DNA of 36,207 nucleotides from a virus (Duplodnaviria > Heunggongvirae > Uroviricota > Caudoviricetes), in the IMG/VR virus record IMGVR_UViG_2541047897_000007, positions 1-36,207 of that record. One strand, 5' to 3'. Below the pieces are notes generated by a model, which worked only from the letters and a program-made list of their open reading frames with translations, had not been told where the DNA came from and ran no database searches. A program made the translations under genes and the position numbers. Positions 2,051-12,681 of this stretch are shown in pieces (position 1 is the first letter of the stretch; each line of letters opens with the position of its first letter).

Positions 2051-2455
2051 TCACCTACCCTTAGTTTCGTTATAGTCACGACCAGCGATACGGTTATTAC
2101 CACCAGAAATATTTAACTCACGTCCTGATGGCTGAGTTTCCTTTTCACTGATCGCACCTTTTAAAGCCCCAATCACCGCGTTTTTCACATCTAACGAAGC
2201 TGCTCGAAAGCGAGTAATCAACTCCTGCTCATCATCGTTATAAGTTTCAGGTGAGTGAATTCCCAACACAACATACTGAACATCAAGGCCAAAACGAGAC
2301 AGCGCTGCCAAATACGCAGCATCAGGAAAGCTATCTCCTTTCTCATATCTAAGCTGAGTTAGCTTTTTGACTCCACCAATGTCGCTCATGGCAACTTGAC
2401 TAAGTCCCAATCTTTCCCTTTCCTCACGCAACCGCTGACCAATATCATTTTTCAT
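2051..2455 (-). CDS. HTH XRE-family transcriptional regulator, probable prophage repressor
   Basis: 134-aa ORF; helix-turn-helix LSQVAMSDIGGVKKLTQLRYEKG; divergent from the early operon with a promoter/operator-like region between them. Confidence 0.75.
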   Translation of the reverse strand: MKNDIGQRLREERERLGLSQVAMSDIGGVKKLTQLRYEKGDSFPDAAYLAALSRFGLDVQYVVLGIHSPETYNDDEQELITRFRAASLDVKNAVIGALKGAISEKETQPSGRELNISGGNNRIAGRDYNETKGR

Positions 2456-2530
2456 ACAAAAACCTTGACAGGTATCTTTTTTGATACCAAAATGATTTCA
2501 CGAGCTATTAGATGATCACAATATACCACT
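2456..2530. promoter_or_regulatory. divergent promoter/operator region between repressor and early operon
   Basis: TTGACA at 2465..2470, 17-bp spacer, CAAAAT at 2488..2493; the spacer carries the dyad ggtatc-N6-gatacc (2471..2488), a candidate operator. Confidence 0.45.
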
Positions 2531-2737
2531 ATGAAACAAGTTCTTCACGATACCAGATCACGCATTCCGCGTAACACCGCCACAGGTCCAAGACTGGCAC
2601 TTCGGCTGTCCCTCGAGGAGCGAGCCGTCATTGATGAAATGGCAGCTAAAGAACAACGCTCATCCTCTAACATGGCGCGCATGATCTTCCTTCGCGGCCT
2701 AGAGCTAACCCAGAAAGAACAAAACAAATCTTCCTGA
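2531..2737 (+). CDS. small early regulator, possibly ribbon-helix-helix (Cro/Apl-like candidate)
   Basis: 68-aa first ORF of the divergent early operon; RLSLEERAVIDEMAAKEQRSSSNMARMIFLRGLE resembles an RHH/Arc-like fold; no clear Shine-Dalgarno, so the start is uncertain. Confidence 0.45.
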   Translation: MKQVLHDTRSRIPRNTATGPRLALRLSLEERAVIDEMAAKEQRSSSNMARMIFLRGLELTQKEQNKSS

Positions 2738-2753
2738 TCAGGAGGCTAGTGGG

Positions 2754-2957
2754 ATGTCAGGTATAACCATCAATATCAATGTGAATGCCCCCTATGTATC
2801 CCTGCAGAAATATGCAGAGATAACAGGTATCCCTCTTAATACATGCAAAAAGATGTTGGCTGACGGTCGAATTATTATCCGCCCCAAACGCGCCAAAATG
2901 GAAAAGCCTGAAGTAAACCTTGTGGCGATGTTAAAAGACGCTTTGGCTAACAGCTAA
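2754..2957 (+). CDS. Cox-like excisionase / early DNA-binding regulator
   Basis: 67-aa ORF with AGGAGG 6 nt upstream; YVSLQKYAEITGIPLNTCKKMLADGRI resembles the HTH of P2 Cox as recalled from memory. Confidence 0.55.
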   Translation: MSGITININVNAPYVSLQKYAEITGIPLNTCKKMLADGRIIIRPKRAKMEKPEVNLVAMLKDALANS

Positions 2958-2978
2958 AACAATGAACAGAGCACCATC

Positions 2979-3329
2979 ATGAAAAAAAACGCTAATAATC
3001 CATACTCCAAATTTCGTAATGGCGTAGAACGCCATGTACACCACGTCGCTACCAGTGCATCACGTAGTAACAGTCGCTATAACCTGAACGAAACACACGC
3101 AACACCGGATGGCCACGCTGTAAAACAAATCGGCGAGCATACCTGGCTGATTGAGAAAGCTGGAATCGTGGTCCACAAATGCCCACGCAATCCGTTTACC
3201 GGAAACCGCATTTTTGCATTGAGCTGCGGAGACAATCACTTCGGACAGGATTTCACATTATACGAAGCACTTCGCACGGTTGATCGTCTGCTTCGCGGGC
3301 AAAGTTTTATTAAACAGGCTGATTTATAA
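2979..3329 (+). CDS. hypothetical early protein
   Basis: 116-aa ORF in the early operon; no recognisable motif. Confidence 0.45.
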   Translation: MKKNANNPYSKFRNGVERHVHHVATSASRSNSRYNLNETHATPDGHAVKQIGEHTWLIEKAGIVVHKCPRNPFTGNRIFALSCGDNHFGQDFTLYEALRTVDRLLRGQSFIKQADL

Positions 3330-3339
3330 CAGGTGCTTT

Positions 3340-3654
3340 ATGACCAAAGAGCATGCACAAGGTGTATTTATCCGTTTTATTGATTTTCGCGGTGAACTGT
3401 TATTACGCGCATCCGCTATTGATGGAGTGGCTCCGGCGGGTAAAAACGGAGCCGACGAAGCCACTTACGTTTATCTGAACGGCACGCGACTGCTTGTGGA
3501 ACTTCCGTACCAGACCGTACGAGAAATCATTAGTGAAGCTGAAAAGGCACGCCTGGCTAATGGCGTGAACCCTATATCGAAATTATTTGTATGGATTCAG
3601 AAACTGAAATTCAGAAAGCAGATTAAAGGGCGTTGCGATGGGCAAAGAATATAA
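3340..3654 (+). CDS. hypothetical early protein
   Basis: ATG at 3340 chosen over the upstream-extended ORF-track start at 3280 to avoid overlap with the preceding gene; 104 aa. Confidence 0.45.
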   Translation: MTKEHAQGVFIRFIDFRGELLLRASAIDGVAPAGKNGADEATYVYLNGTRLLVELPYQTVREIISEAEKARLANGVNPISKLFVWIQKLKFRKQIKGRCDGQRI

Positions 3655-3880
3655 AACTCTCATTAACAAAGCACTTGAGCGTTTTTATTTTCGCTTAAGT
3701 GCATCAGGCGCTCATGCTGAACGAGCAGCCCGTGACTCATTGACCAGGGCAATCCGGAGTCTGTATGACGTGGCTTTTTACGCTGATGATCTGGATGCAC
3801 TTAACGAACTTTCCGAGCTGATCTGTGCCGCAGAATGCGGGGAACATATTGAACCGTATAAGCTGGGAAATATTGCATGA
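3638..3880 (+). CDS. hypothetical early protein
   Basis: 80-aa ORF, start overlaps the upstream stop (translational coupling). Confidence 0.5.
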   Translation: MGKEYKTLINKALERFYFRLSASGAHAERAARDSLTRAIRSLYDVAFYADDLDALNELSELICAAECGEHIEPYKLGNIA

Positions 3881-3990
3881 GTATATTTATCTCATGGCTT
3901 GTTCTGATTATTTCGGTGGCCTGCGCCATTGGGATTATGCGAATTATTCATTCAGTAAAAAAGATTGAACGCTTTTTCACTGGTGAATAA
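3877..3990 (+). CDS. small hydrophobic peptide (37 aa), putative membrane peptide
   Basis: ATG overlaps the previous stop (atga); MSIFISWLVLIISVACAIGIM is a single predicted TM helix; below the ORF-track size cutoff and read by hand. Confidence 0.3.
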   Translation: MSIFISWLVLIISVACAIGIMRIIHSVKKIERFFTGE

Positions 3991-4083
3991 CGATACAAAT
4001 AAAGCATCAAATTAAATAAGAAAACGTGAAAACCATCCGTATTAACGGAGGTATTCGCACACGCAAATAACGGAGATACAAAA

Positions 4084-4494
4084 ATGCACGCAAAAGAAGA
4101 AGGTATCATCAGAGCACTGAAAGAAATTTCAAAGACAGAAAACGAAGTAGCGAAAAAAGCCGTGGCAAATGCACATATGGACGTCGCAACCCACACACTG
4201 ATAGTCGCAAGAGTCACGGCAGAAGCAGCCGAAATTATCGCAAAACAGGATGCTGAACTGGCGGTTCTCAGAACACAACCAGTCACCGGACTGGATTTGT
4301 CTAACACCGGACGCCTTATTTACACAATTGGCTCGGAGCTACAGCGATACACCATTATCGCCGGATTACAGGATAAATACCTGATCACTCCTCACCCCAT
4401 AAGGGAATCAGAAATTCTGACAAATCTCCGCCTGATAGAACGCTCTCAAGTTGTATTCATTGATGACGCGCAATGTGCCGTATTTAACGCATAG
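4084..4494 (+). CDS. hypothetical protein
   Basis: 136-aa ORF preceded by a 94-bp AT-rich gap and a GGAG RBS; may have its own promoter. Confidence 0.55.
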   Translation: MHAKEEGIIRALKEISKTENEVAKKAVANAHMDVATHTLIVARVTAEAAEIIAKQDAELAVLRTQPVTGLDLSNTGRLIYTIGSELQRYTIIAGLQDKYLITPHPIRESEILTNLRLIERSQVVFIDDAQCAVFNA

Positions 4495-4517
4495 GGTTAC
4501 TGGACAAAGGGGGCGCA

Positions 4518-4721
4518 ATGGCAATTAAGCATTTTCCCGTCGTTCGCTTTACCTCCAGAGGGCGCGAATACGAGGTCGACGAACGCCTGATTACCACTAT
4601 CGACAAACATCGTTCGGAAAAGGATGCACACCACATCTACCTCACTGACGGCACTTACTTCTGCGCCACCAACGTGGCGCGGGTGAATCTTATCCGACAG
4701 GTACAGGAGCCACGCAGATGA
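4518..4721 (+). CDS. hypothetical protein
   Basis: 67-aa ORF with RBS aaggggg. Confidence 0.5.
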   Translation: MAIKHFPVVRFTSRGREYEVDERLITTIDKHRSEKDAHHIYLTDGTYFCATNVARVNLIRQVQEPRR

Positions 4722-4984
4722 CCATTCTGGACTACATCGCTACTCATCCGGGGTGTAGCGGCGGAGAGATCGCCGCAGCACTGAATACCCCAACCACAGC
4801 CATTAATGCTGAGTTACGCCGACTTTGGCGCGGCGGCTTAGTCATCAGAACAAACCGCAGCACAGGTGGTCGCGCTCGCAAAACAGGAGGCCAGGCTTCT
4901 TACCACGTAAACCCGATGCTGTTCGGGTGTAGTAATCCACTTACTCACATGTTTAACCAGCTACTGAAGGAAGCCAGAGCATGA
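4718..4984 (+). CDS. hypothetical protein, possibly winged-helix DNA-binding
   Basis: 88-aa ORF with AGGAG RBS; ILDYIATHPGCSGGEIAAALNTPTTAINAELRRLWRGGLV resembles a winged-helix recognition unit. Confidence 0.5.
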   Translation: MTILDYIATHPGCSGGEIAAALNTPTTAINAELRRLWRGGLVIRTNRSTGGRARKTGGQASYHVNPMLFGCSNPLTHMFNQLLKEARA

Positions 4985-5281
4985 GCACCATCAACCACCA
5001 GAAGCTACGCGAACTGGCATTTGCCCTGCAACGAATGGCAACGCCTCAAAAATTACTGGCATTTCGCGCAATGCTCTCGCCGTCTGCTGTGCTGGCACTG
5101 CTGGATCAGCTGGAGCACGCCAGAACCACTGCTCCAGCCATTCGCCTCACGCTCCATCATGAAATCGCTGATTTCTGCGCAACGCTGGGGGGCACCTGGC
5201 GAACCGGAAACGCCGGAAGCAATGCAGCAAGAGCTGCTGCAACGCATCGATAACGTTTTTGATTTTTTTCTGAACCAGTAA
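4981..5281 (+). CDS. hypothetical protein whose reading frame is broken at a G6 homopolymer
   Basis: ORF 4981..5253 and overlapping ORF 5021..5281 both look protein-like; they join into one product of about 100 aa if the G run at 5187..5192 were one G shorter. Confidence 0.4.
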
Positions 5282-5402
5282 GAAACCAGAACATGCACAC
5301 ACAAAAAAACCGCTTGCCATGCCTCAATCGGTCAGGTTACATTTCCGCTGCACCTCATAAAACGGGTGCCGGGATTCTCAACCCGATACAGAGCAAAGCG
5401 CA

Positions 5403-5428
5403 TAACCGCGCAAGCGGTTTTTTTGTGC
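5403..5428 (+). terminator. candidate rho-independent terminator
   Basis: aaccgc-GCAA-gcggtt hairpin followed by ttttt; also forms one arm of an 18-nt perfect inverted repeat with 5299..5316. Confidence 0.35.
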
Positions 5429-5603
5429 GTACTGTATTGCCACGTCTTTTTCGCGTCAGAATTATGGCGGGGCGTACGGGGCCGACTTCGGTCGGGCCGG
5501 ATTCTTTGCTCTCCGGTGTTGAGAACCCTGTACGTCTCGCCACCCCGAGATTCTCAACTCTGGATGGTGAGTTATTTCTATCACCGAGCAAAGAGGCCAC
5601 ACC

Positions 5604-5834
5604 ATGGCAGACCGCAAACAGCACCGCGCTATCGCGGAGCGTCGTCACATCCAGACTGAAATCAACCGCAGACTTTCCCGCGCATCACGCGTCGCGCAAA
5701 TCATGCACATCAATATGCTGCATGAGCGCAGCCACGCACTATCAAACATTTATTCCGCCTCTGTTTTCAGCTATCTGGCGGATGATCTGCACGAGCTTCA
5801 ACAGCTCATCCAGCAGCAAAACAAACTCCATTAA
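5604..5834 (+). CDS. hypothetical protein
   Basis: 76-aa ORF with RBS agagg 8 nt upstream; basic N-terminal half. Confidence 0.5.
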   Translation: MADRKQHRAIAERRHIQTEINRRLSRASRVAQIMHINMLHERSHALSNIYSASVFSYLADDLHELQQLIQQQNKLH

Positions 5835-5906
5835 TTCCTGTTCCGGGCCTTTCCTGCACCTTGCGGCGGGAGGCCTTCGCACATCTGTAACAAGAGGATT
5901 GCCGCA

Positions 5907-6272
5907 ATGATTCTCGCCAACGACTTTCTTGAATACCTGCTCAACACAGAGCGTGATCTTGCCGCTCGCGTGCGTGATCGTTATGACATGTACCTGAAAT
6001 CCCTGCCTGTACCGCAGCTCGCTGACGGAAAGATTGTTATTGATGGTCGCTACATGATTGACAGCCACGAGGGAAATTACAGGCTTTCCCGCATTGAAGG
6101 TGGCACCCCGTCCGTTATTGGCATTTACCAGCGCCCATCCTCTGCAATCGTCGATGTGATTGCCGACAGCATCCGCATCACACATCGCCATGCCGACACA
6201 GAAGACACCGTGCTGGAAATTCAGCGGCTGGCTACAGTCTGCCGCGACACCCTGAATGGCATGACGAAGTAA
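5907..6272 (+). CDS. hypothetical protein
   Basis: 121-aa ORF with RBS agagga; immediately upstream of gene A. Confidence 0.55.
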   Translation: MILANDFLEYLLNTERDLAARVRDRYDMYLKSLPVPQLADGKIVIDGRYMIDSHEGNYRLSRIEGGTPSVIGIYQRPSSAIVDVIADSIRITHRHADTEDTVLEIQRLATVCRDTLNGMTK

Positions 6273-6278
6273 ATCACT

Positions 6279-9101
6279 ATGACGGCAGAGTACATCAGGG
6301 ACTGGCAACAACCGCGCCACGCAGTGGGGCGTGAAGGAACGGGGATCCCCGCTCCTGAATCCGCGCTTTCCTCCTGGCTGGATGCCTACCGGGTAGAGAA
6401 CGAGCGCCGCCAGGAAATGGCTGATGCGGCGTTCTCCGCCACGCCGCTGGGCAACCTGATTAATAAAAGCCTGGACGCACAGGAAAAACAGGACAAAACC
6501 ATCACACTGGCAGGAGACGCCAGAAAACAGGCACGCGGCGCAGTGGATGAAGCCATGACCTCGCTGCGCCTGCTGCCGTCCTATCTGCGCGATCCGCTTA
6601 TTCGCCACCTCTCCTTCCTGCGCAAAAAACAGGAAGCCGATCGCCGGAAAGGCAAAAAGAGCTGGCAGGCGGAACGCTATGCACGCGGAACCCTGCGCAA
6701 AATATTCGAACGTCTGGACCGCACCGATCACCGCTGGCTGACACCGGGTTATCGCTCCCTTGCCGGACGCGAACGCCTGGACGATTTGCTTTACCTGCCG
6801 CAGCTCAACAAACACCAGATACAGACGCTGGCCACCATGACGGCGGCGATGTTCAGCAGCACCTTCGAAAAACTCTGCGATGGCTTTGGCGCGACTGATG
6901 GCGAACTGACCATGGATGTAACGCTGAAGGCGTATCAGATGCTGGCCCGCATGGCGTTACACCTGCACGCCATGCCTCCACATTATGACGCACTGACAAC
7001 AGACAAAGACCGGAGGAACGAACCGGACACAGAGCTGCTGCCGGGCGCAATCCTTCGCCTGACCTGTGCGGAATGGTGGAAACGCAAACTGTGGCTGTTA
7101 CGTTGCGAGTGGAGAGAAGAACAACTCCGCGCCGCCTGTCTGGTTTCCAGAAAAACATCGCCCTATCTGAGCCAGGACGCGTTAAGCGAGTTTCGCGCAC
7201 AGCGCGAGAAAACACGCGATTTCCTGAAAAGTTTCATGCTGGAAAACGAAGACGGGTTCACGATTGATCTCGAGACAGTGTATTACGCGGGAGTAAGTAA
7301 CCCGGTTCACCGTAAGGCAGAAATGATGGCCACCATGAAGGGACTGGAACTTCTGGCCGAAGCCCGTGGCGACAGAGCGGTGTTTCTGACTGTCACCTGC
7401 CCGTCAAAATACCACGCAACAACGGAGAACGGTCATCCGAACCCCAAATGGAACGGGGCCACCATGCGCGACTCCAGCGATTACCTGGTTAACACGTTTT
7501 TTGCGGCGGTCCGCAAAAAACTGAACCGCGACGGCCTGCGCTGGTATGGCATCCGCACGGTGGAGCCTCACCATGACGGCACCGTGCACTGGCATATGAT
7601 GGTCTTTGCTCATCCGGAAGAAATCGACAGCATCGTGGCCATCACCCGCGATATTGCCATTCAGGAAGACCGCCACGAGCTGGGCAATGATATTACTCCG
7701 CGCTTTAAAGTGGAGTATGTCGACGGCTCAAAAGGCACACCAACCAGCTATATCGCGACCTACATCGGGAAAAACCTGGACAGCCGCGCCGTGGATGGCA
7801 TCGACCCGAAAACGGGCAAACCACGCGTTGACCACGAAACCGGAAAATCAATGGCCGAGAGCGTGGAGCGCGCCATCGGTTGGGCACGCCTTCACCGGGT
7901 CCGCCAGTTCCAGTTCTTTGGCATCCCCTCCCGTCAGGTGTGGCGTGAACTCCGCCGCCTTGCCAGCCAGATGGCACGCAACCCGGAAGGCCCGCAACGG
8001 CTGAAGGATGACGCAATGGATGCGGTACTCGCTGCCGCTGATGCCGGATGTTTTGCCACCTACATAGAGAAACAGGGCGGCGTACTTGTTCCACGCAAAG
8101 ACTACCTGATTCGCACCGCCTACGACCTCGCCGATGAGCTGAACGATTACGGCGAACAGAGTGTACAGATTTACGGGATCTGGTCACCACTCATCGGGGA
8201 ATCCTCCCGTGTGTGCACGCACCCGGATAACTGGAAGCTGGTAAGACGTAAACCGGAACAGGAAGGCAGCGCCCACGAAAATGGTTTTGACCTTCAGGGC
8301 GGCCCTGCCGCCCCTTGGACTCGTGGCAATAACTGTCCCCGTGTACAGGAAACGGACAACAACGGGACAGAACAGCCGGAAGAACGGCCAGCACCGTGGC
8401 CGCAGCTCCCTGACGGCGTTGAAGTGAACGAATGGATGCGCTCACTGAAACGGCACGAACGCCGGGCGCTGATGCGTTCGCTTCGTGACAAACAGGCAAA
8501 AAACAGCAGTGATGAAATGCAGAGCTGGACACAGAGCCGCAAACAGCAGCGGCCTTTGCCTGATAACCACGAATTACTCGCTAAAGAATGGCGGGAGTCT
8601 GCTGAATCTCTCGGCCTGCATATCGGTGAACAACAGATGCAGCACCTGTTACGGGGCGGCAGTCTGTACGTTGACGGCAGCATCATTGCACCGCAGGGAT
8701 TTGAAATTGTACGCAAACCGGATACCCGCCCGGACAGCCGAATCACGCAGCTCTGGCAGCGCCTGAGCCGTAATCACGGCGTAAGCAGCACGGAGATCCG
8801 CCATAACCCGGTCGCCAGCTATCTGGCGCAACTGGGGGCATCAGACCCTGAAGCCGCCGCACGCCTGGCATCCACACTTCAGCAGGACCAGAACACCATG
8901 AAAACACCCGTTACCGTGCTTTCTGACATGCTGCGCGCCATCCGCGACACAGAGCACGCACAGAGAATCAGTGAAACCACTGAACGCGCCCGCCGCAAAG
9001 CAGACCTGCTGCGGGGTGGCCTGACCATTGGAAACAAAAAACAGACAGAAACGGGATTCACAAATCCCGTAAATGAGCAAAAAACGCGCCGCGATATATG
9101 A
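6279..9101 (+). CDS. A: replication initiation endonuclease (P2 gpA-like, rolling-circle HUH nuclease)
   Basis: 940-aa ORF; HUH-type motif VHWHMMVFAH and tyrosine pair in SYIATYIGK; position after the early operon as in P2. Confidence 0.9.
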   Translation: MTAEYIRDWQQPRHAVGREGTGIPAPESALSSWLDAYRVENERRQEMADAAFSATPLGNLINKSLDAQEKQDKTITLAGDARKQARGAVDEAMTSLRLLPSYLRDPLIRHLSFLRKKQEADRRKGKKSWQAERYARGTLRKIFERLDRTDHRWLTPGYRSLAGRERLDDLLYLPQLNKHQIQTLATMTAAMFSSTFEKLCDGFGATDGELTMDVTLKAYQMLARMALHLHAMPPHYDALTTDKDRRNEPDTELLPGAILRLTCAEWWKRKLWLLRCEWREEQLRAACLVSRKTSPYLSQDALSEFRAQREKTRDFLKSFMLENEDGFTIDLETVYYAGVSNPVHRKAEMMATMKGLELLAEARGDRAVFLTVTCPSKYHATTENGHPNPKWNGATMRDSSDYLVNTFFAAVRKKLNRDGLRWYGIRTVEPHHDGTVHWHMMVFAHPEEIDSIVAITRDIAIQEDRHELGNDITPRFKVEYVDGSKGTPTSYIATYIGKNLDSRAVDGIDPKTGKPRVDHETGKSMAESVERAIGWARLHRVRQFQFFGIPSRQVWRELRRLASQMARNPEGPQRLKDDAMDAVLAAADAGCFATYIEKQGGVLVPRKDYLIRTAYDLADELNDYGEQSVQIYGIWSPLIGESSRVCTHPDNWKLVRRKPEQEGSAHENGFDLQGGPAAPWTRGNNCPRVQETDNNGTEQPEERPAPWPQLPDGVEVNEWMRSLKRHERRALMRSLRDKQAKNSSDEMQSWTQSRKQQRPLPDNHELLAKEWRESAESLGLHIGEQQMQHLLRGGSLYVDGSIIAPQGFEIVRKPDTRPDSRITQLWQRLSRNHGVSSTEIRHNPVASYLAQLGASDPEAAARLASTLQQDQNTMKTPVTVLSDMLRAIRDTEHAQRISETTERARRKADLLRGGLTIGNKKQTETGFTNPVNEQKTRRDI

Positions 9102-9177: not shown

Positions 9178-10137
9178 ATGAAAATTTGTATCGATGACGG
9201 CTCCACCAACATCAAGCTGGCATGGACTGAGAACGGCGAACGCCGCAACGCCATCAGCCCAAACAGCTTCAAGTCGGAATGGTCTGCGCCGTTCGGTGGC
9301 ACGCAGCCCGCGAACTACATGCTTGATGGCGTGCGCTATGGTTTTGATCCGGTCAGCGATCGCTTTGTCCAGACGACCGACACGCAATACCAGTACAGCG
9401 ATGTGAATGTCATTGCCATTCATCACGCGCTGGTCAAATCAGGCATCACACCACAGGAAGTGGATGTGGTTGTCACCCTGCCACTGAGCGAATATTTCGA
9501 CACAAACGCACAGCCGGTCATGGCCAACATCAACCGCAAAAAAGCAAACGTCATGCGCCCGGTGGCGTACCAGAACGGAAAAGCATTCACTATCCGTAAC
9601 GTACGGGTTATGCCTGAATCCATTCCGGCTGGTTTTAAAGCACTGGCTGACATGAGTCCGTTTGAATCCCTGCTGATTGTGGATTTAGGCGGAACCACGC
9701 TGGATGTGGCAAAGGTTCAGGGACAACTGGCAGGTATCAGCCAGGTGTTTTGCGATCCACACGTAGGCGTTTCCCTGATGGCCGATGCCGTACTGTCGGT
9801 GATGGCCACTAACGGTATGCGTACCAGTCACCACATCGCCAATACCATTATCGAACATCGCCATGATGAAGCTTGGCTGCGCCAGCACATCCACAATGAC
9901 GCGCATTACGACAGCCTGATAGCGGTTATTCGTGAAAAGGAAGAAACACTGAAACAACGCGTGATCCGCGCGCTGGCGGGTTTTTCGGGTTACGGGCGGG
10001 TGATGGTTGTCGGTGGCGGGGCGGAGATTGTGGCACCCGCTATCCGCGAAGCCTGCGGAGTTAATGCGACTTTCATCGCGGACGGGGTGCCACAGTTTGC
10101 TCTGGTTAATGGGCTGTACGCAATGGACAAGGAGTAA
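9178..10137 (+). CDS. parM: ParM/StbA-like actin-type segregation ATPase
   Basis: 319-aa ORF; actin-fold motifs IDDGSTNIKL, IVDLGGTTLD and VVGGGAE; close match along its length to plasmid R1 ParM as recalled from memory. Confidence 0.85.
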   Translation: MKICIDDGSTNIKLAWTENGERRNAISPNSFKSEWSAPFGGTQPANYMLDGVRYGFDPVSDRFVQTTDTQYQYSDVNVIAIHHALVKSGITPQEVDVVVTLPLSEYFDTNAQPVMANINRKKANVMRPVAYQNGKAFTIRNVRVMPESIPAGFKALADMSPFESLLIVDLGGTTLDVAKVQGQLAGISQVFCDPHVGVSLMADAVLSVMATNGMRTSHHIANTIIEHRHDEAWLRQHIHNDAHYDSLIAVIREKEETLKQRVIRALAGFSGYGRVMVVGGGAEIVAPAIREACGVNATFIADGVPQFALVNGLYAMDKE

Positions 10138-10141
10138 ACCA

Positions 10142-10453
10142 ATGACGACACCAACCAGACGGATAAGTTTCTATCTGAAGCCCGCCGCCGTCAAGAACGA
10201 AGGCGAAGCATGCGCCTGGCTGGACAGCCTTACACCAGAAGCCCGCAAAAGTGGTCAACGTGTGGCTTTTCTGGCCGGACTGGCACTTATGAAAATTAAT
10301 CCGGCAGAGGCTTACCGACTGGCTGCATGGGCTGACGATGAAGCGTTATCCCTGACACAAACCAGGACAGAACGCCCCGTGTCACAGCCAGCACCAACCG
10401 CACAGATAACCAGTCAGATGGCCGGAAATATCCGGGCGTTATTTCCCGAATAA
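10142..10453 (+). CDS. parR: ParR-like centromere-binding adaptor (candidate)
   Basis: 103-aa product from the ATG at 10142 with AGGAG RBS; RRISFYLKP...AGLAL...LFPE resembles R1 ParR as recalled from memory; position directly after the parM-like gene. Confidence 0.55.
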   Translation: MTTPTRRISFYLKPAAVKNEGEACAWLDSLTPEARKSGQRVAFLAGLALMKINPAEAYRLAAWADDEALSLTQTRTERPVSQPAPTAQITSQMAGNIRALFPE

Positions 10454-10516
10454 CACAACATCAGGGCGCATCCGCCCTGATGACTTTAACCCGGGAACAT
10501 AAACAAGGGGGACACA

Positions 10517-10849
10517 ATGCAACACATTGACAGAGAAAAAGCGCAGCGACTGATTGAGCGGATGGAAGCGCTGGCGCAAGAAGAAAATGTCAACATCCAA
10601 AAAATAGCTGAATGTGGCCAGATAGTTCTTCGTCGTGAAAAAGACCTCAAACAACTGATGTCTGGCAAAACCAGCAAAACATGGGATTCAGGCGAGGAAA
10701 TGATTTATTGCAGCTTCTGCAATAAATCCCAGTACGAAGTCACAAAGGTGATTGCTGGACCGTCTGTTTACATCTGCAATGAGTGCGTGGATTTGTGCAA
10801 TGAAATTATCAGGAGAGAAGTGGCAGACAAAAAGGGAAAAAACACATGA
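10517..10849 (+). CDS. stand-alone ClpX-type C4 zinc-finger (ZBD) domain protein
   Basis: 110-aa ORF with strong RBS; C-terminal [38 protein letters not shown] is near-identical in pattern to the E. coli ClpX N-terminal zinc-binding domain, including the spacing of all four Cys; no AAA+ module follows. Confidence 0.75.
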
Positions 10850-11160
10850 ACAGAAAACAAAAACAAGAGTTGAAATACTTTTTACGTAAAGAAATTGCCA
10901 GGCTTGAAGATGCAGAATCACGATCATCAGAAATTCCGTTCGGAATGGATATCAACGACGCCCGTATGCTCCAGGCATACCGTATAGCTCAGGCTGCACT
11001 ACAGGCAAAACCGTCAGATGGACTGGTTAGAGCAGTACGTTTCTATGAACTGGTAAAGCGTGAGAATCCGCCAACCGAAACCGGAGCATGGAAAGACGCT
11101 GTTGACTGGGTGCTCAGAGAAGCTTGCCAGACTGTAAACATTGGTATCAAAGGAGAGTGA
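10846..11160 (+). CDS. hypothetical protein
   Basis: 104-aa ORF, start overlaps the upstream stop. Confidence 0.55.
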
Positions 11161-11162
11161 GA

Positions 11163-11654
11163 GTGCAGATTTCACCGGTTACTCTTCGTGTTGCGAAGGC
11201 ATTTATATCCAGACATCACCGACACAATAAACCCCCGGTGGGGCATAAATTCAGCATTGGTCTGAGAAATGATGCCGGAGAATTGATAGGTGTGGCGACA
11301 GCCGGTCGACCTGTTGCACGACATTTGGACGATGGATTAACGCTTGAAGTAAATCGCACATGTACCACAGGAGAACGCAACGCTAACAGCGCGCTTTATG
11401 GTGCTGTCTGGCGGGCAGCAAAAGCTATGGGTTATCAACGTTGTATTACGTACACCCGGGCAGATGAATCAGGAGCATCTCTTCGCGCAGCTGGTTTTGT
11501 TCGTGTGAAAGAGCTTCCTCCAAGAAAAAGCTGGGCGGAATCAAGCGTCGCCCTGCGGAGTAAACGCGATCCGGTCGGAAACGGTGGTGTTCCTCGTGTG
11601 CTCTGGGAAATCAGGAGAATGAGTACCACTGGCATTCGCATCAAAGGAGAGTGA
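11163..11654 (+). CDS. hypothetical protein (weak GNAT-like resemblance)
   Basis: GTG start at 11163 with AGGAG 6 nt upstream preferred over the overlapping ATG at 11124; 163 aa. Confidence 0.45.
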   Translation: MQISPVTLRVAKAFISRHHRHNKPPVGHKFSIGLRNDAGELIGVATAGRPVARHLDDGLTLEVNRTCTTGERNANSALYGAVWRAAKAMGYQRCITYTRADESGASLRAAGFVRVKELPPRKSWAESSVALRSKRDPVGNGGVPRVLWEIRRMSTTGIRIKGE

Positions 11655-11655
11655 T

Positions 11656-11919
11656 ATGGCAACTTTAACAAAAAAAGAACGGGCATGGTTGAATGAATTA
11701 CAGGACGTTCTTGATCGCTGCCCATCACCGAAAAAAATTGGTTTTTACACCATTGGCGATAAAAGCATTTACCTGTATGACCTGCGCCGCATGGATGAAA
11801 TCATGGAGGCTCTTGATAATCGTTCGTCAATGGATTGGTGTGTTGCTGTTCATGATATGAATGCAGGGTTTGATGAAAAGATTTTGTTCCCCTCATCAGT
11901 TGAAAGCACAGCAGGATAA
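11656..11919 (+). CDS. hypothetical protein
   Basis: 87-aa ORF starting 2 nt after the upstream stop, preceded by the same aaaggagagtga junction seen at 11149..11160. Confidence 0.55.
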   Translation: MATLTKKERAWLNELQDVLDRCPSPKKIGFYTIGDKSIYLYDLRRMDEIMEALDNRSSMDWCVAVHDMNAGFDEKILFPSSVESTAG

Positions 11920-11929
11920 GGACTAACAC

Positions 11930-12190
11930 ATGACAACTTTCACCGACAAAGAACTGATTAAAGAAATCAAAGAGCGCATAGGCAGCCTGGACGTTCGAGA
12001 CAATATTGAGCGCCGTGCTTATGAAATTGCACTGGCATCACTGGAAGCAGAGCCAGTAGCATGGATGCATGTAAATAACGGCATCGGAATACCAGCAATA
12101 ACAAGGAGTAAAGAGGTTGCAGAGAGTTGGTTATCAAAAGGCTGGTATGTCCAACCCTTGCATCTAGCCCAGCCTGCATCAAAGCTATAG
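11930..12190 (+). CDS. hypothetical protein
   Basis: 86-aa ORF with RBS aggact; last gene of the island. Confidence 0.55.
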   Translation: MTTFTDKELIKEIKERIGSLDVRDNIERRAYEIALASLEAEPVAWMHVNNGIGIPAITRSKEVAESWLSKGWYVQPLHLAQPASKL

Positions 12191-12200
12191 AAATGAGCCA

Positions 12201-12229
12201 AAACGCCCTCTTCCAGGGCGTTTATTTTA
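12201..12229 (+). terminator. rho-independent terminator ending the early/accessory operon
   Basis: aaacgccct-cttcc-agggcgttt hairpin followed by a T-rich tract. Confidence 0.55.
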
Positions 12230-12681
12230 ATGCACAATAGTGCACAAATTTGCACAATTTTTTTGAACGACTTTTTGCCCTTCCGGCCCCCGTGGCGGCT
12301 GGATCCGTCAAGGATCCGTGCGTGCACAAAAAAACGCGTTTTTTCTGCGCGCAGGTGACGGGGGAACAGCCCGCGTTTCAGGGGGTAAATAGCGTTCCCT
12401 TAACGATGTCGCAGCGACACGACAGAATGGCCGTATTTCTCACGCTGAGCGTGAAAAATACGTGAGGGATTCTGATTTGATGGGGTGAAAGGTAAGGCCG
12501 TCAAAATCGCACTGAGGCGGCGAGAACATGCAGTCAACGCGGTGGGATTGCGTAAGAGTCTGACCGTCGATGGTGGCGATAAACTGGAAGGCGTCGTGAA
12601 ATTATCTGACTGATACAGGAGCTGGAGAGTCGGGGCATAAATTTTTTATGCCCCGGCGAAGCAGCAGACAAGCGAAGCGCG

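Follow-up and report, generated by a model that had tools for sequence, protein, structure and literature searches.

Between the Cox-like switch gene of a P2-family prophage and its replication gene A lies a run of small early genes, and the question raised by this locus is whether those at positions 2979-5281 are effectors directed against the host or parts of the phage's own early programme. A sequence-only reading of the window, that is, of the whole stretch of 36,207 nucleotides analysed here, had described nine small ORFans filling the interval from the cox-like gene to gene A, and had proposed them as a plausible source of host-takeover and anti-defence functions. The prophage DNA is 91-95% identical to that of P88-type phages and 99.9% identical to a prophage of E. 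coli O145:H28 and, by its sequence, the prophage is of the P88 type, a P2-family type very common in E. coli, with 2979-5281 as an ordinary part of its early operon. Of 5426 complete E. coli genomes, 1055-1456 contain the module, 1055 being a minimum, and so does phage P88; its gene set is already catalogued, as hypothetical early genes near-identical (99.9%) to those of RefSeq-annotated prophages. The earlier assignment to the early operon of a P2-family prophage, with genes of no known function, was sound; the label of ORFans was wrong, as shown by this distribution and by the matches of seven of the eight genes to families of Pfam or PHROG (DUF4761, DUF4754, a winged helix of the MarR type and five PHROGs without known function).

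The stretch contains eight tightly packed genes, and its ORFs cover 94.5% of it. The features are the following:

2979-3329, plus strand: g1, 116 aa, DUF4761 (PF15958 and phrog_2492)
3340-3654, plus strand: g2, phrog_3800 gene, 92-95 aa when intact
3638-3880, plus strand: g3, 80 aa, DUF4754 (PF15946)
3877-3990, plus strand: g4, 37 aa, predicted single-span membrane peptide, its start overlapping the g3 stop (ATGA)
3991-4065, plus strand: intergenic spacer between g4 and g6, conserved and containing a hairpin (about 4026-4058)
4084-4494, plus strand: g5, 136 aa, phrog_9338 (E 3e-75), in an optional cassette at about 4066-4506
4518-4721, plus strand: g6, 67 aa, phrog_3459 (E 1.1e-45), translationally coupled to g7
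4718-4984, plus strand: g7, 88 aa, minimal MarR-type winged helix-turn-helix (PF12802 MarR_2, phrog_1687)
4981-5281, plus strand: g8, one 99-aa gene, phrog_4144, split here into ORF 8 (4981-5253) and ORF 9 (5021-5281)

The run of real ORFs claimed earlier is thus present, but it amounts to eight genes and not nine, ORFs 8 and 9 being the halves of one. Shine-Dalgarno sequences are plausible for most of the eight, weak for g1 and g4, and ATGA overlaps are found at three gene junctions. To follow conservation, we compared 83 related loci, in which g1 was present in 80 (dN/dS 0.15), g2 in 80 (0.23), g3 in 83, g4 in 83 (0.24), g5 in 33 (0.37), g6 in 82 (0.13), g7 in 69 and g8 in 57; these loci are the best matches to g3, so that the invariance of g3 and the frequencies of the core genes are biased upwards. 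Across all eight genes dN/dS ranged from 0.13 to 0.37, indicating purifying selection and, since it is well below 1 for every one of them, g1-g8 are real genes and not chance ORFs.

The first block begins with g1, which aligns with the complete PF15958 profile (positions 1-105 of 105; 219 bits, cut-off 27) and belongs to DUF4761. Its AF2 model (mean pLDDT 71, core 86-91) predicts a disordered basic N-terminal tail of about residues 1-35, followed by a sheet of five strands and a single helix; fold searches of PDB and BFVD gave no match with E < 0.01, and AcrIF24, considered as a fold relative, was discarded as noise (E 0.5, TM 0.31). An exhaustive DUF4761 profile search among 1.84 billion representative proteins returned 23 matches, nearly all of them fragments of the same family, and no domain fusion informative of function. 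The second gene, g2, is frameshifted in the window by a 1-nt deletion after 3565, revealed by DNA alignment with P88 and PV468777, which puts the last 23 aa out of frame, replaces the C-terminus and extends the ORF 17 nt into g3; the phrog_3800 match ends at position 81 of 95, and RefSeq tags the same gene as 'frameshifted' in O145. A paralogy of g2 and g6, suspected from a similar 'YL.(N/D)GT' stretch at the same position, was rejected (BLASTP E 0.3, hhalign probability 0.2%). As for g3, it matches PF15946 over profile positions 1-80 of 80 (181.7 bits, cut-off 27), which places it in DUF4754, and its protein is identical in the 83 loci despite 36 distinct DNA sequences and a mean dS of 0.11, an identity partly built in by the ranking of the loci on g3. 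The 37-aa peptide g4, picked out earlier for its single transmembrane segment, was confirmed as such: read directly, MSIFISWLVLIISVACAIGIM-RIIHSVKKIERFFTGE consists of one hydrophobic span and a basic tail. It is 89-100% identical among the loci, and has no family match in Pfam, PHROG or NCBIfam.

The 136-aa gene had been said to be preceded by its own AT-rich gap. Both the ORF and the gap (93 nt, 34% G+C) exist, but the gap is the g4-g6 spacer rather than a property of g5: in an alignment with P88 and a second locus, L014, both without g5, the spacer is conserved whether or not the gene follows. Its hairpin has a fold z-score of -3.05, and the loop-closing pair is T-A here and C-G in P88. The g5 cassette is inserted between this spacer and the g6 ribosome-binding site, and is absent from P88. 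Its alleles are 52-100% identical, with dN 0.18, N-termini that differ as swapped modules and a linker whose length varies by repeats, and we collected 89 homologues from Escherichia, Shigella and Citrobacter. The protein is predicted to consist of an N-terminal helical hairpin, the variable linker and a small SH3-like beta-barrel (AF2 pLDDT 81), for which the PDB gave no match with E < 0.01 and only a generic small-barrel likeness (SH3, Sm, KOW, chromo). Homologue searches with g5, g1 and g6 delineated narrow families within the enterobacteria and gave no relative that is named or part of a fusion.

In the second block, g6-like and g7-like segments are both contained in a single PHROG profile of 246 positions, phrog_19053. 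Full-length MarR proteins run to about 140 aa and dimerise through N- and C-terminal helices. The g7 product is only 88 aa long; it scores above the cut-off on PF12802 MarR_2 (31.5 bits, cut-off 27; positions 9-61 of the 61 in the profile) and on the 'MarR family' phrog_1687 (E 1.3e-30), and reaches 18 bits against a cut-off of 24.6 on the classical MarR model PF01047. A sequence search found no relative of it in the PDB, and it is best described as a minimal winged helix-turn-helix protein, occurring in two allele classes of about 97% and 76% identity. The last gene, g8, is interrupted by one additional G, since a run of six G at 5187-5192 replaces the run of five present in the 99.9%-identical O145 prophage; the phrog_4144 match to ORF 8 covers only positions 1-71 of 99, and ORF 9 is the frame-shifted tail, ending at 5281. 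A likeness to the lambdoid Ead/Ea22 proteins is suggested by the helical character of g8 and of the g5 N-terminus, by a weak match of g8 to PF13935 Ead_Ea22 and by the annotation of g8 in P88; however, that match (20.2-20.5 bits, cut-off 27) is below threshold and aligns about 25 residues, so that it is no evidence of membership.

How these genes may be expressed is suggested by the switch region to their left, with the following features:

2465-2493, plus strand: predicted early-promoter-like site (TTGACA, 17-nt spacer, CAAAAT; 10 of 12 matches in a consensus scan)
2531-2737, 5' of the Cox-like gene: possible ribbon-helix-helix ORF, 68 aa, with RHH Pfam matches only at E 0.075
2754-2957, plus strand: Cox/Apl-like excisionase-repressor gene, 67 aa (phrog_575, E 1.2e-27), the left boundary of the stretch considered earlier

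The site at 2465-2493 faces the operon from between a CI-like repressor gene (2051-2455, minus strand) and the first plus-strand ORF, a position analogous to that of P2 Pe and 186 pR. From it we infer transcription through the Cox-like gene towards gene A; the promoter is proposed from its consensus match, in a scan that gave 5 such sites where the chance expectation was 4.9.

On these grounds we favour, with a probability of about 0.6, an explanation intrinsic to the phage, in which a P88-like E. coli prophage (Xuanwuvirus, Peduoviridae) would carry, as the middle part of its early lytic operon, the stretch 2979-5281, built of two translationally coupled blocks, g1-g4 and g5-g8, parted by the conserved hairpin-bearing spacer. 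The int-cox region of the window was found in only 8 of the 83 loci, among 13 upstream types, and g1, g2, g3, g4 and g6 represent a lineage-specific core, near-invariant and under strong constraint behind many immunity regions; it is because they are kept in this way behind different immunity regions that a phage-intrinsic role is suggested for them. The core proteins would act in the early programme of the phage itself, possibly by binding conserved phage or host components of replication, division or transcription; g7, coupled with its partner g6, would bind DNA as a small winged-helix protein, and the inner membrane would be the place where g4 acts. The genes g5, g7 and g8 are patchy or occur in divergent alleles and g5, without which P88 is viable, would be the best candidate for an accessory effector. 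The frameshifts in g2 and g8 count against the phage-intrinsic explanation, as they show that these genes can be lost in a resident prophage. Searches of databases and literature found no experiment, structure match or homologue assigning a function to g1-g6 or g8.

The same two frameshifts, affecting two of eight genes in the window, could be taken as a sign that the ORFs are decaying or non-functional filler of a defective prophage. This is very improbable: it is largely refuted by the purifying selection on all eight genes; the same genes, apart from the absent g5, are moreover intact in P88, a phage obtained by induction that lyses its hosts, according to its published description (PMC5285337). 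The change in g8 is a single homopolymer insertion, absent from relatives 99.9% identical, and could be a sequencing error. The proposal that makes the small proteins effectors of host takeover or anti-defence, inhibiting host immunity or essential machines early in infection, deserves more attention, and yet we consider it doubtful. All of them are indeed small, early and without known function, none matches a housekeeping protein of P2 or 186, and the corresponding slot of phage 186 contains genes directed at the host (fil, dhr). The signature expected of such cargo is seen in g5, with its presence in a minority of loci, alleles diverging to 52% identity, swapped N-terminal modules and a linker varying in repeat length; it is, however, the only gene that fits, as typical anti-defence cargo is patchy whereas g1-g4 and g6 are near-universal and highly conserved across immunity types, and even for g5 the overall dN/dS indicates no positive selection. 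For the folds of g1 and g5, PDB and BFVD gave no significant match, a situation often met with inhibitors, but the likeness of g1 to AcrIF24 is not significant.

Positive evidence for effectors of this kind was not obtained from PADLOC, NCBIfam, PDB sequences, the two AlphaFold models, the profile search or the literature. Of the sensitive homology and structure searches that the sequence-only reading had recommended, the homology searches covered g1-g8 and the fold searches g1 and g5; they gave no function-revealing match for g1-g6 or g8. With PADLOC, which covers defence systems and not anti-defence proteins, no ORF had a match below E 0.008, and the matches that exist are generic HTH ones for g7; across NCBIfam, PADLOC and the PDB sequences no ORF obtained a significant match, and no anti-defence annotation (Acr, Ocr, Ard and similar) was found for g1-g8 in PHROG, Pfam or NCBIfam. 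A literature search on DUF4761, DUF4754, the early genes of P88 and Xuanwuvirus, and six RefSeq protein accessions retrieved no functional study. A bolder conjecture, to which we give rather less than even odds, is that at least one conserved small early protein is an inhibitor of new fold acting on a defence system or an essential host machine, with g5 and g4 as best candidates; a separate part of the conjecture is the cassette switch described below. By themselves, the genes in 2979-5281 are of small significance, being a catalogued set from a prophage type that is among the commonest in E. coli; they can be used as a short and defined list for experiments, comprising five near-universal P88-type proteins without assigned function and one optional cassette.

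The region between g8 and gene A had been overlooked. Contrary to the earlier description, the small ORFs do not fill the interval up to gene A, and in 5282-6278 there are two RNAs known to Rfam and two further genes, namely a P4-type cassette of isrK, C4 RNA and epsilon-like derepression protein, and a 121-aa gene:

5314-5343, plus strand: promoter-like site, predicted by promoter scan
5350-5424, plus strand: isrK / P4 seqA-like small RNA (Rfam RF01394, 63.1 bits against 50)
5460-5547, plus strand: C4 / P4 CI-type antisense RNA (Rfam RF01695, 78.5 bits against 45)
5604-5834, plus strand: epsilon-like derepression-protein gene, 76 aa (PF25738, 32.5 bits against 27)
5907-6272, plus strand: 121-aa gene directly 5' of gene A, in 56 of 83 loci, dN/dS 0.23
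6279-9101, plus strand: gene A, replication endonuclease (PF05840 Phage_GPA, E 1.7e-130), the right boundary of the early small-gene region

This cassette is the only part of the region with a readable mechanism, and it is more informative than g1-g8. The isrK-like RNA has a predicted intrinsic-terminator-like hairpin at 5404-5419 and two sites (5375-5382 and 5390-5398) complementary to the C4-like RNA, whose pairing boxes are at 5503-5512 and 5518-5525; a second pair of targets lies at 5551-5558 and, overlapping the Shine-Dalgarno AAGAGG of the gene at 5604, at 5586-5594. The boxes and their targets are exact complementary 8-9-mers. Twelve alleles of box 1 and four of box 2 were found, covarying with both target sets in a three-way pairing, and all four target sites are exactly matched in 47 of 53 loci; in both representatives of the exceptions inspected (L014 and L017) the mismatch is one substitution that still allows a G-U pair, although for the L014 allele the box-1 site on the downstream side was read only in part. 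The RNA duplex energies discriminated weakly from mononucleotide shuffles (11-16 of 500 shuffles equalled them), and for this reason the pairing is argued from the exact boxes and their covariation. Both RNAs were found in 13 of 13 scanned loci with the 76-aa gene and in none of four without it, and the order isrK, C4, anti-repressor gene is the same in all 13, and in P4. With its Rfam matches, gene order and covarying boxes, 5296-5834 is recognisable as a C4 / P4-CI cassette, in which an RNA cut from the leader would act against translation or transcription of the anti-repressor gene. The specificity alleles of the cassette are numerous and reassort independently of repressor type. A 205-aa ORF at 5293-5910 with a weak 'Ash' match was rejected as a gene: Phage_ASH matches the obsolete 'cI protein' ORF of P4, which overlaps the CI RNA, so that the similarity reflects the RNA sequence. 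The 121-aa protein matches DUF5405 below cut-off (E 0.05), and its P2 Orf81 or DUF5405 matches at E 0.005-0.05 are a lead only; it is possibly a remote relative of P2 Orf83 (DUF5405), and its gene has the position of P2 orf83 and 186 orf83.

Compared with known phages, the locus is closest to P88 (Xuanwuvirus P88, NC_026014, gp04-gp16) and to P88-type prophages such as that of E. coli O145:H28, with which it shares the gene order DUF4761, phrog_3800, DUF4754, 37-aa peptide, 67-aa gene, winged helix-turn-helix, Ead-like gene, derepression protein, 121-aa gene and A. P88 differs in lacking the g5 cassette and in three additional genes that separate its Ead-like gene from the isrK cassette, while the window differs in its int-repressor-cox module, the one shared by few loci, and in the two frameshifts. 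The early operon of P2 is organised as cox, orf78, B, orf80-83 and A, that of 186 as apl, cII, fil, dhr, orf79-84 and A; as in these phages, small tightly packed genes with an internal non-coding break lie here between the Cox/Apl switch protein and gene A. g1-g8 fill the slot of P2 orf78, B and orf80-83 and of 186 cII, fil, dhr and orf79-84, but are unrelated to them in sequence. The sequence-only reading had named as its counter-case that all ORFs might be known P2 or 186 early proteins; this did not hold, since against 26 early-region proteins of the two phages (blastp, phmmer --max), no real gene among g1-g8 had a match better than E 0.009, the best being that of g3 to part of P2 B (E 0.009-0.02 in this 26-protein database), a lead only. 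A match of ORF 9 to Tum (E 0.001) was dismissed, as ORF 9 is mostly read in a non-coding frame, and only the Cox-like gene matched the P2/186 early set (Apl of 186, E 1e-4 to 3e-4).

The likeness to P4 concerns the cassette. The Rfam isrK and C4 models match the P4 immunity region (seqA / CI RNA / seqC / epsilon) in the same order directly 5' of eps, the derepression protein is in the same Pfam family as epsilon, and the boxes pair with one upstream pair of sites and with one at the ribosome-binding site. The protein itself differs from P4 epsilon (95 aa; 170 bits on PF25738), with which the 76 aa share only 32% identity over 50 aa (E 6e-9). Related systems are c4-icd-ant of P1/P7 and isrK-STnc1160-anrP of Gifsy-1 (PMC4825925, together with general knowledge). 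Unlike in P4, the cassette belongs here to the early operon of a P2-family phage of the helper type, which is no satellite. According to a survey of P4-like satellites (PMC8628076), P2-like phages have clear homologues of only one P4-specific gene, delta, and it is against this statement that the occurrence of a P4-style RNA immunity unit in a helper-type phage should be viewed, as it bears on the induction of P2-family prophages and on the exchange of control modules between helpers and satellites. The P4-type RNA / epsilon cassette may provide the phage with a satellite-style, allele-specific derepression switch which, if real, could serve in conflicts among P2-family prophages sharing a host, or in conflicts with P4-like satellites.

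The stretch 2979-5281 most likely belongs to the early operon of a P88-type phage. Over 2400-6400 the DNA shares 91-95% identity with Escherichia phage P88 and further P88-type phages (Xuanwuvirus, Peduoviridae); for 2979-5910, identity to an E. coli O145:H28 prophage is 99.9%. The latter region was matched in 1456 of 5426 complete E. coli genomes, with at least 80% covered in 1055 of those, which places the element among the most frequent prophage types of E. coli, one already annotated many times. Transcription of the operon would start at a promoter-like site at 2465-2493, and the small ORFs run between the Cox/Apl-like gene and gene A.

Features of the window up to gene A. For g1 to g8, the number of loci with the gene is out of 83 (80 related viral contigs and three annotated records; the contigs are the best 80 matches to g3, so that its perfect conservation is partly by construction), and dN/dS is by Nei-Gojobori across these loci.
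1-1002, − strand: tyrosine integrase
followed, − strand, by a DUF2511 lipoprotein-like gene and a 216-aa gene (1385-2035)
2051-2455, − strand: HTH repressor-like (CI-like) gene
2531-2737, + strand: possible RHH ORF, 68 aa (RHH matches weak, E 0.075)
2754-2957, + strand: Cox/Apl-like gene (phrog_575)
2979-3329, + strand: g1, Pfam DUF4761 (219 bits); 80 loci; dN/dS 0.15
3340-3654, + strand: g2, phrog_3800; 80 loci; 0.23
3638-3880, + strand: g3, Pfam DUF4754 (182 bits); 83 loci; 0.00
3877-3990, + strand: g4, single-span membrane peptide; 83 loci; 0.24
4084-4494, + strand: g5, phrog_9338; 33 loci (alleles of 52-100% identity); 0.37
4518-4721, + strand: g6, phrog_3459; 82 loci; 0.13
4718-4984, + strand: g7, MarR_2 winged helix (31.5 bits vs 27) and phrog_1687; 69 loci (two allele classes); 0.25
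4981-5281, + strand: g8, phrog_4144, sub-threshold Ead/Ea22 match; 57 loci; 0.21
5350-5424: isrK RNA (Rfam 63.1 bits vs a cut-off of 50)
5460-5547: C4 antisense RNA (Rfam 78.5 bits vs 45)
5604-5834: 76-aa ORF, Pfam 'Derepression protein' family (32.5 bits vs 27)
6279-9101, + strand: gene A replication endonuclease, 940 aa

All eight dN/dS values are well below 1, and g1 to g8 are thus genuine protein-coding genes; one identical g3 protein was encoded by 36 distinct DNA sequences (mean dS 0.11). The + strand ORFs occupy 94.5% of 2979-5281, with gaps of 10, −17, −4, 93, 23, −4 and −4 nt between successive ORFs and a recognisable Shine-Dalgarno or ATGA stop-start overlap at most starts. The sequence-only reading had counted nine genes, its eighth (4981-5253) and ninth (5021-5281) ORFs being in fact the single gene g8: relatives carry one 300-nt gene at this place, and the phrog_4144 match is confined to positions 1-71 of 99. 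Positions 5187-5192 are G6 in the window and G5 in both the O145 prophage and a related locus, L075; the extra G could be a sequencing error. In g2, a 1-nt deletion after 3565 replaces the C-terminus, and since RefSeq flags the O145 g2 as frameshifted, this lesion is common to the window and an independently assembled prophage.

The same reading had called these genes ORFans, a label that does not hold: all but the 37-aa g4 match a Pfam or PHROG family. The families of g1-g3, g5, g6 and g8 carry no assigned function, the winged helix of g7 being the exception, and literature searches found no paper mentioning any of these families. When blastp and phmmer --max were run with every window protein against the P2 and 186 early-region proteins, 26 in total, the Cox-like protein matched 186 Apl (E 1e-4) and the repressor weakly matched P2 C and 186 CI. 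None of g1-g8 gave a match that would be meaningful in so small a database, and so the outcome that would have refuted the earlier reading, a match of all the ORFs to well-characterised P2 or 186 early proteins, did not occur; the genes stand in place of the early accessory genes of these phages, not as counterparts of them.

The int / DUF2511 / 216-aa / repressor / RHH / cox module (1-2957) is present in only 8 of the 83 loci sharing the downstream early genes, and the 1.3 kb upstream of g1 fall into 13 types. The same g1-g4 block follows at least 13 distinct upstream modules, the join lying just before g1. Set against these figures, the gene counts identify g1-g4 and g6 as a conserved core travelling with many immunity modules; g5 is variable, g7 and g8 less so.

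Some further observations concern the regions flanking these genes. The strand of 2531-2737 is ambiguous: its + strand ORF is named 'Arc-like repressor' in phage 520873, and RefSeq has instead a 45-aa hypothetical on the − strand in the O145 prophage. A 13-residue motif recurs at the C-terminal end of the CI-like repressor (GGNNRIAGRDYNE) and at the N-terminal end of the adjacent 216-aa protein (GSNNRVAGRDFHE), the latter ending in a hydrophobic stretch; the C-terminal part of 186 CI aligns to the motif-bearing part of the repressor (E 0.02). Downstream of gene A, 9178-12465 encodes a plasmid-type partition pair, ParM (271 and 230 bits) and StbB-like Plasmid_stab_B (87.6 bits). The same stretch specifies a 110-aa protein bearing a C4 zinc finger of the ClpX type (66 bits), a 176-aa ORF whose Mom-family match lies below threshold (22 bits) and several small family-less ORFs.

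From conservation pattern, position and predicted structure, the likeliest task of the core genes is in the early programme of the phage itself, via conserved partners; g7 and the translationally coupled g6 may form a small DNA-binding pair, and g4 may act on the membrane. The host-takeover or anti-defence role proposed earlier gained no evidence from family, PADLOC, PDB or fold searches; NCBIfam, PADLOC and PDB sequence searches with the window ORFs were empty. It is rather unlikely that at least one of the small early genes is anti-defence: nothing positive supports it and, for the core, near-universal conservation speaks against it. The g1 model (mean pLDDT 71) has a basic, disordered N-terminus of 31 residues and a core of a five-strand sheet plus a helix (pLDDT 86-91), with no significant match in PDB or BFVD, and an exhaustive profile search of 1.84 billion representative proteins gave 23 matches only, nearly all fragments of the same family. 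A suspected g2-g6 paralogy was rejected.

Among the small genes, g5 is the best candidate for an accessory effector. It is a cassette of ~440 bp inserted between the g4-g6 spacer and the g6 ribosome-binding site, and the AT-rich gap (93 nt, 34% G+C) that had been taken as its own is this conserved spacer, found also in phages without g5. The family ranges over Escherichia, Shigella and Citrobacter; homologues have swapped N-terminal alleles and linkers varying in length by copies of a DTGLNLS-like repeat. Its AlphaFold2 model (23 homologues, mean pLDDT 81) starts with an N-terminal hairpin of two helices (pLDDT ~95), from which a flexible linker leads to a small barrel of five strands. A Foldseek search of the PDB with this model returned no match below E 0.01; the resemblances were to generic barrels of the SH3, Sm or KOW kind. 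P88 is reported to have been recovered by induction and to lyse hosts (PMC5285337); since P88 has no g5, the gene appears dispensable for growth. The spacer also holds a conserved hairpin at 4026-4058 (fold z-score −3.05), whose loop-closing pair is T-A in the window and C-G in P88; having no T-tract, it is not an obvious intrinsic terminator, and in position it recalls the internal break seen in the early operons of P2 and 186.

On the whole, 2979-5281 is real but ordinary: its early genes are uncharacterised, known and already annotated, and the prophage is a very common one. The nine ORFs do not fill the cox-to-A interval; a further 1 kb (5282-6278) had been overlooked, and the most interesting item of the interval, an RNA and anti-repressor cassette, lies there. 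At gathering thresholds Rfam matches just two RNAs anywhere in the 36-kb window, isrK and C4, both between g8 and gene A and directly upstream of the derepression ORF. A promoter-like site at 5314-5343 would place the transcription start at the isrK 5' end, and the left end of the cassette is conserved across three different upstream contexts. Both RNAs were found in 13 of 13 related loci with the derepression gene and in 0 of 4 without it (17 scanned).

A perfect 18-nt inverted repeat (CACAAAAAAACCGCTTGC) has one arm at the cassette left end (5299-5316), where it overlaps the −35 element of the promoter-like site for isrK; the other (5409-5426) forms the 3' half of the isrK terminator together with its U-tract. 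Conservation extends over 15-18 nt in 13 of 13 loci checked. The repeat could compete with terminator formation when transcripts read through from the early promoter.

The C4-like RNA has two boxes (5503-5512 and 5518-5525) exactly complementary to two pairs of sites, one within isrK (5390-5398 and 5375-5382) and one downstream (5586-5594 and 5551-5558), where 5586-5594 overlaps the Shine-Dalgarno of the derepression gene. The 53 parsed loci contain 12 box-1 and 4 box-2 alleles in 15 combinations, and in 47 of them complementarity is exact at all four target sites; the remaining 6 belong to two allele types, and in the representative inspected of each (L014 and L017) one substitution leaves a G-U pair, although for the L014 type only part of the downstream box-1 site was read. 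The boxes can pair with their targets, and covariation is three-way, between the boxes, the sites in isrK and those downstream. The C4-like RNA would block translation by pairing at the anti-repressor ribosome-binding site, and the isrK-borne sites may compete for or modulate this pairing; P1/P7 c4 and P4 CI are precedents. The RNA alleles reassort freely over the 13 upstream immunity types. The two epsilon-like protein alleles, by contrast, depend on immunity type: E2 is confined to types I4, I5 and I10 (Fisher p ~5e-8, with no correction for shared ancestry), which is consistent with, and no proof of, a protein acting on the phage's own repressor.

An 'ash family' pseudogene that is put at 5293-5560 in some annotations (ORF 5293-5910, + strand) was discarded as an RNA region read as protein. 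In P4, the obsolete 'cI protein' ORF (8168-8584, − strand), which overlaps the CI RNA, reaches 59.7 bits with the Phage_ASH model. What Pfam 'Phage_ASH' or 'ash family protein' labels thus appears to be a translation of the conserved CI/C4 RNA region; the model served as the epsilon marker in a survey of P4-like satellites (PMC8628076).

By its sequence, 5296-5834 reads as a P4-type immunity cassette within the early operon of a helper-type phage, in the order promoter-like site, isrK (seqA-like), C4/CI-like RNA and epsilon-like derepression protein. The 76-aa protein shares 32% identity with P4 epsilon across 50 aa (E 6e-9), IsrK was described in the Gifsy-1 study as a structural homologue of P4 seqA (PMC4825925), and P4 itself has the same two Rfam matches, in the same order, immediately upstream of eps.
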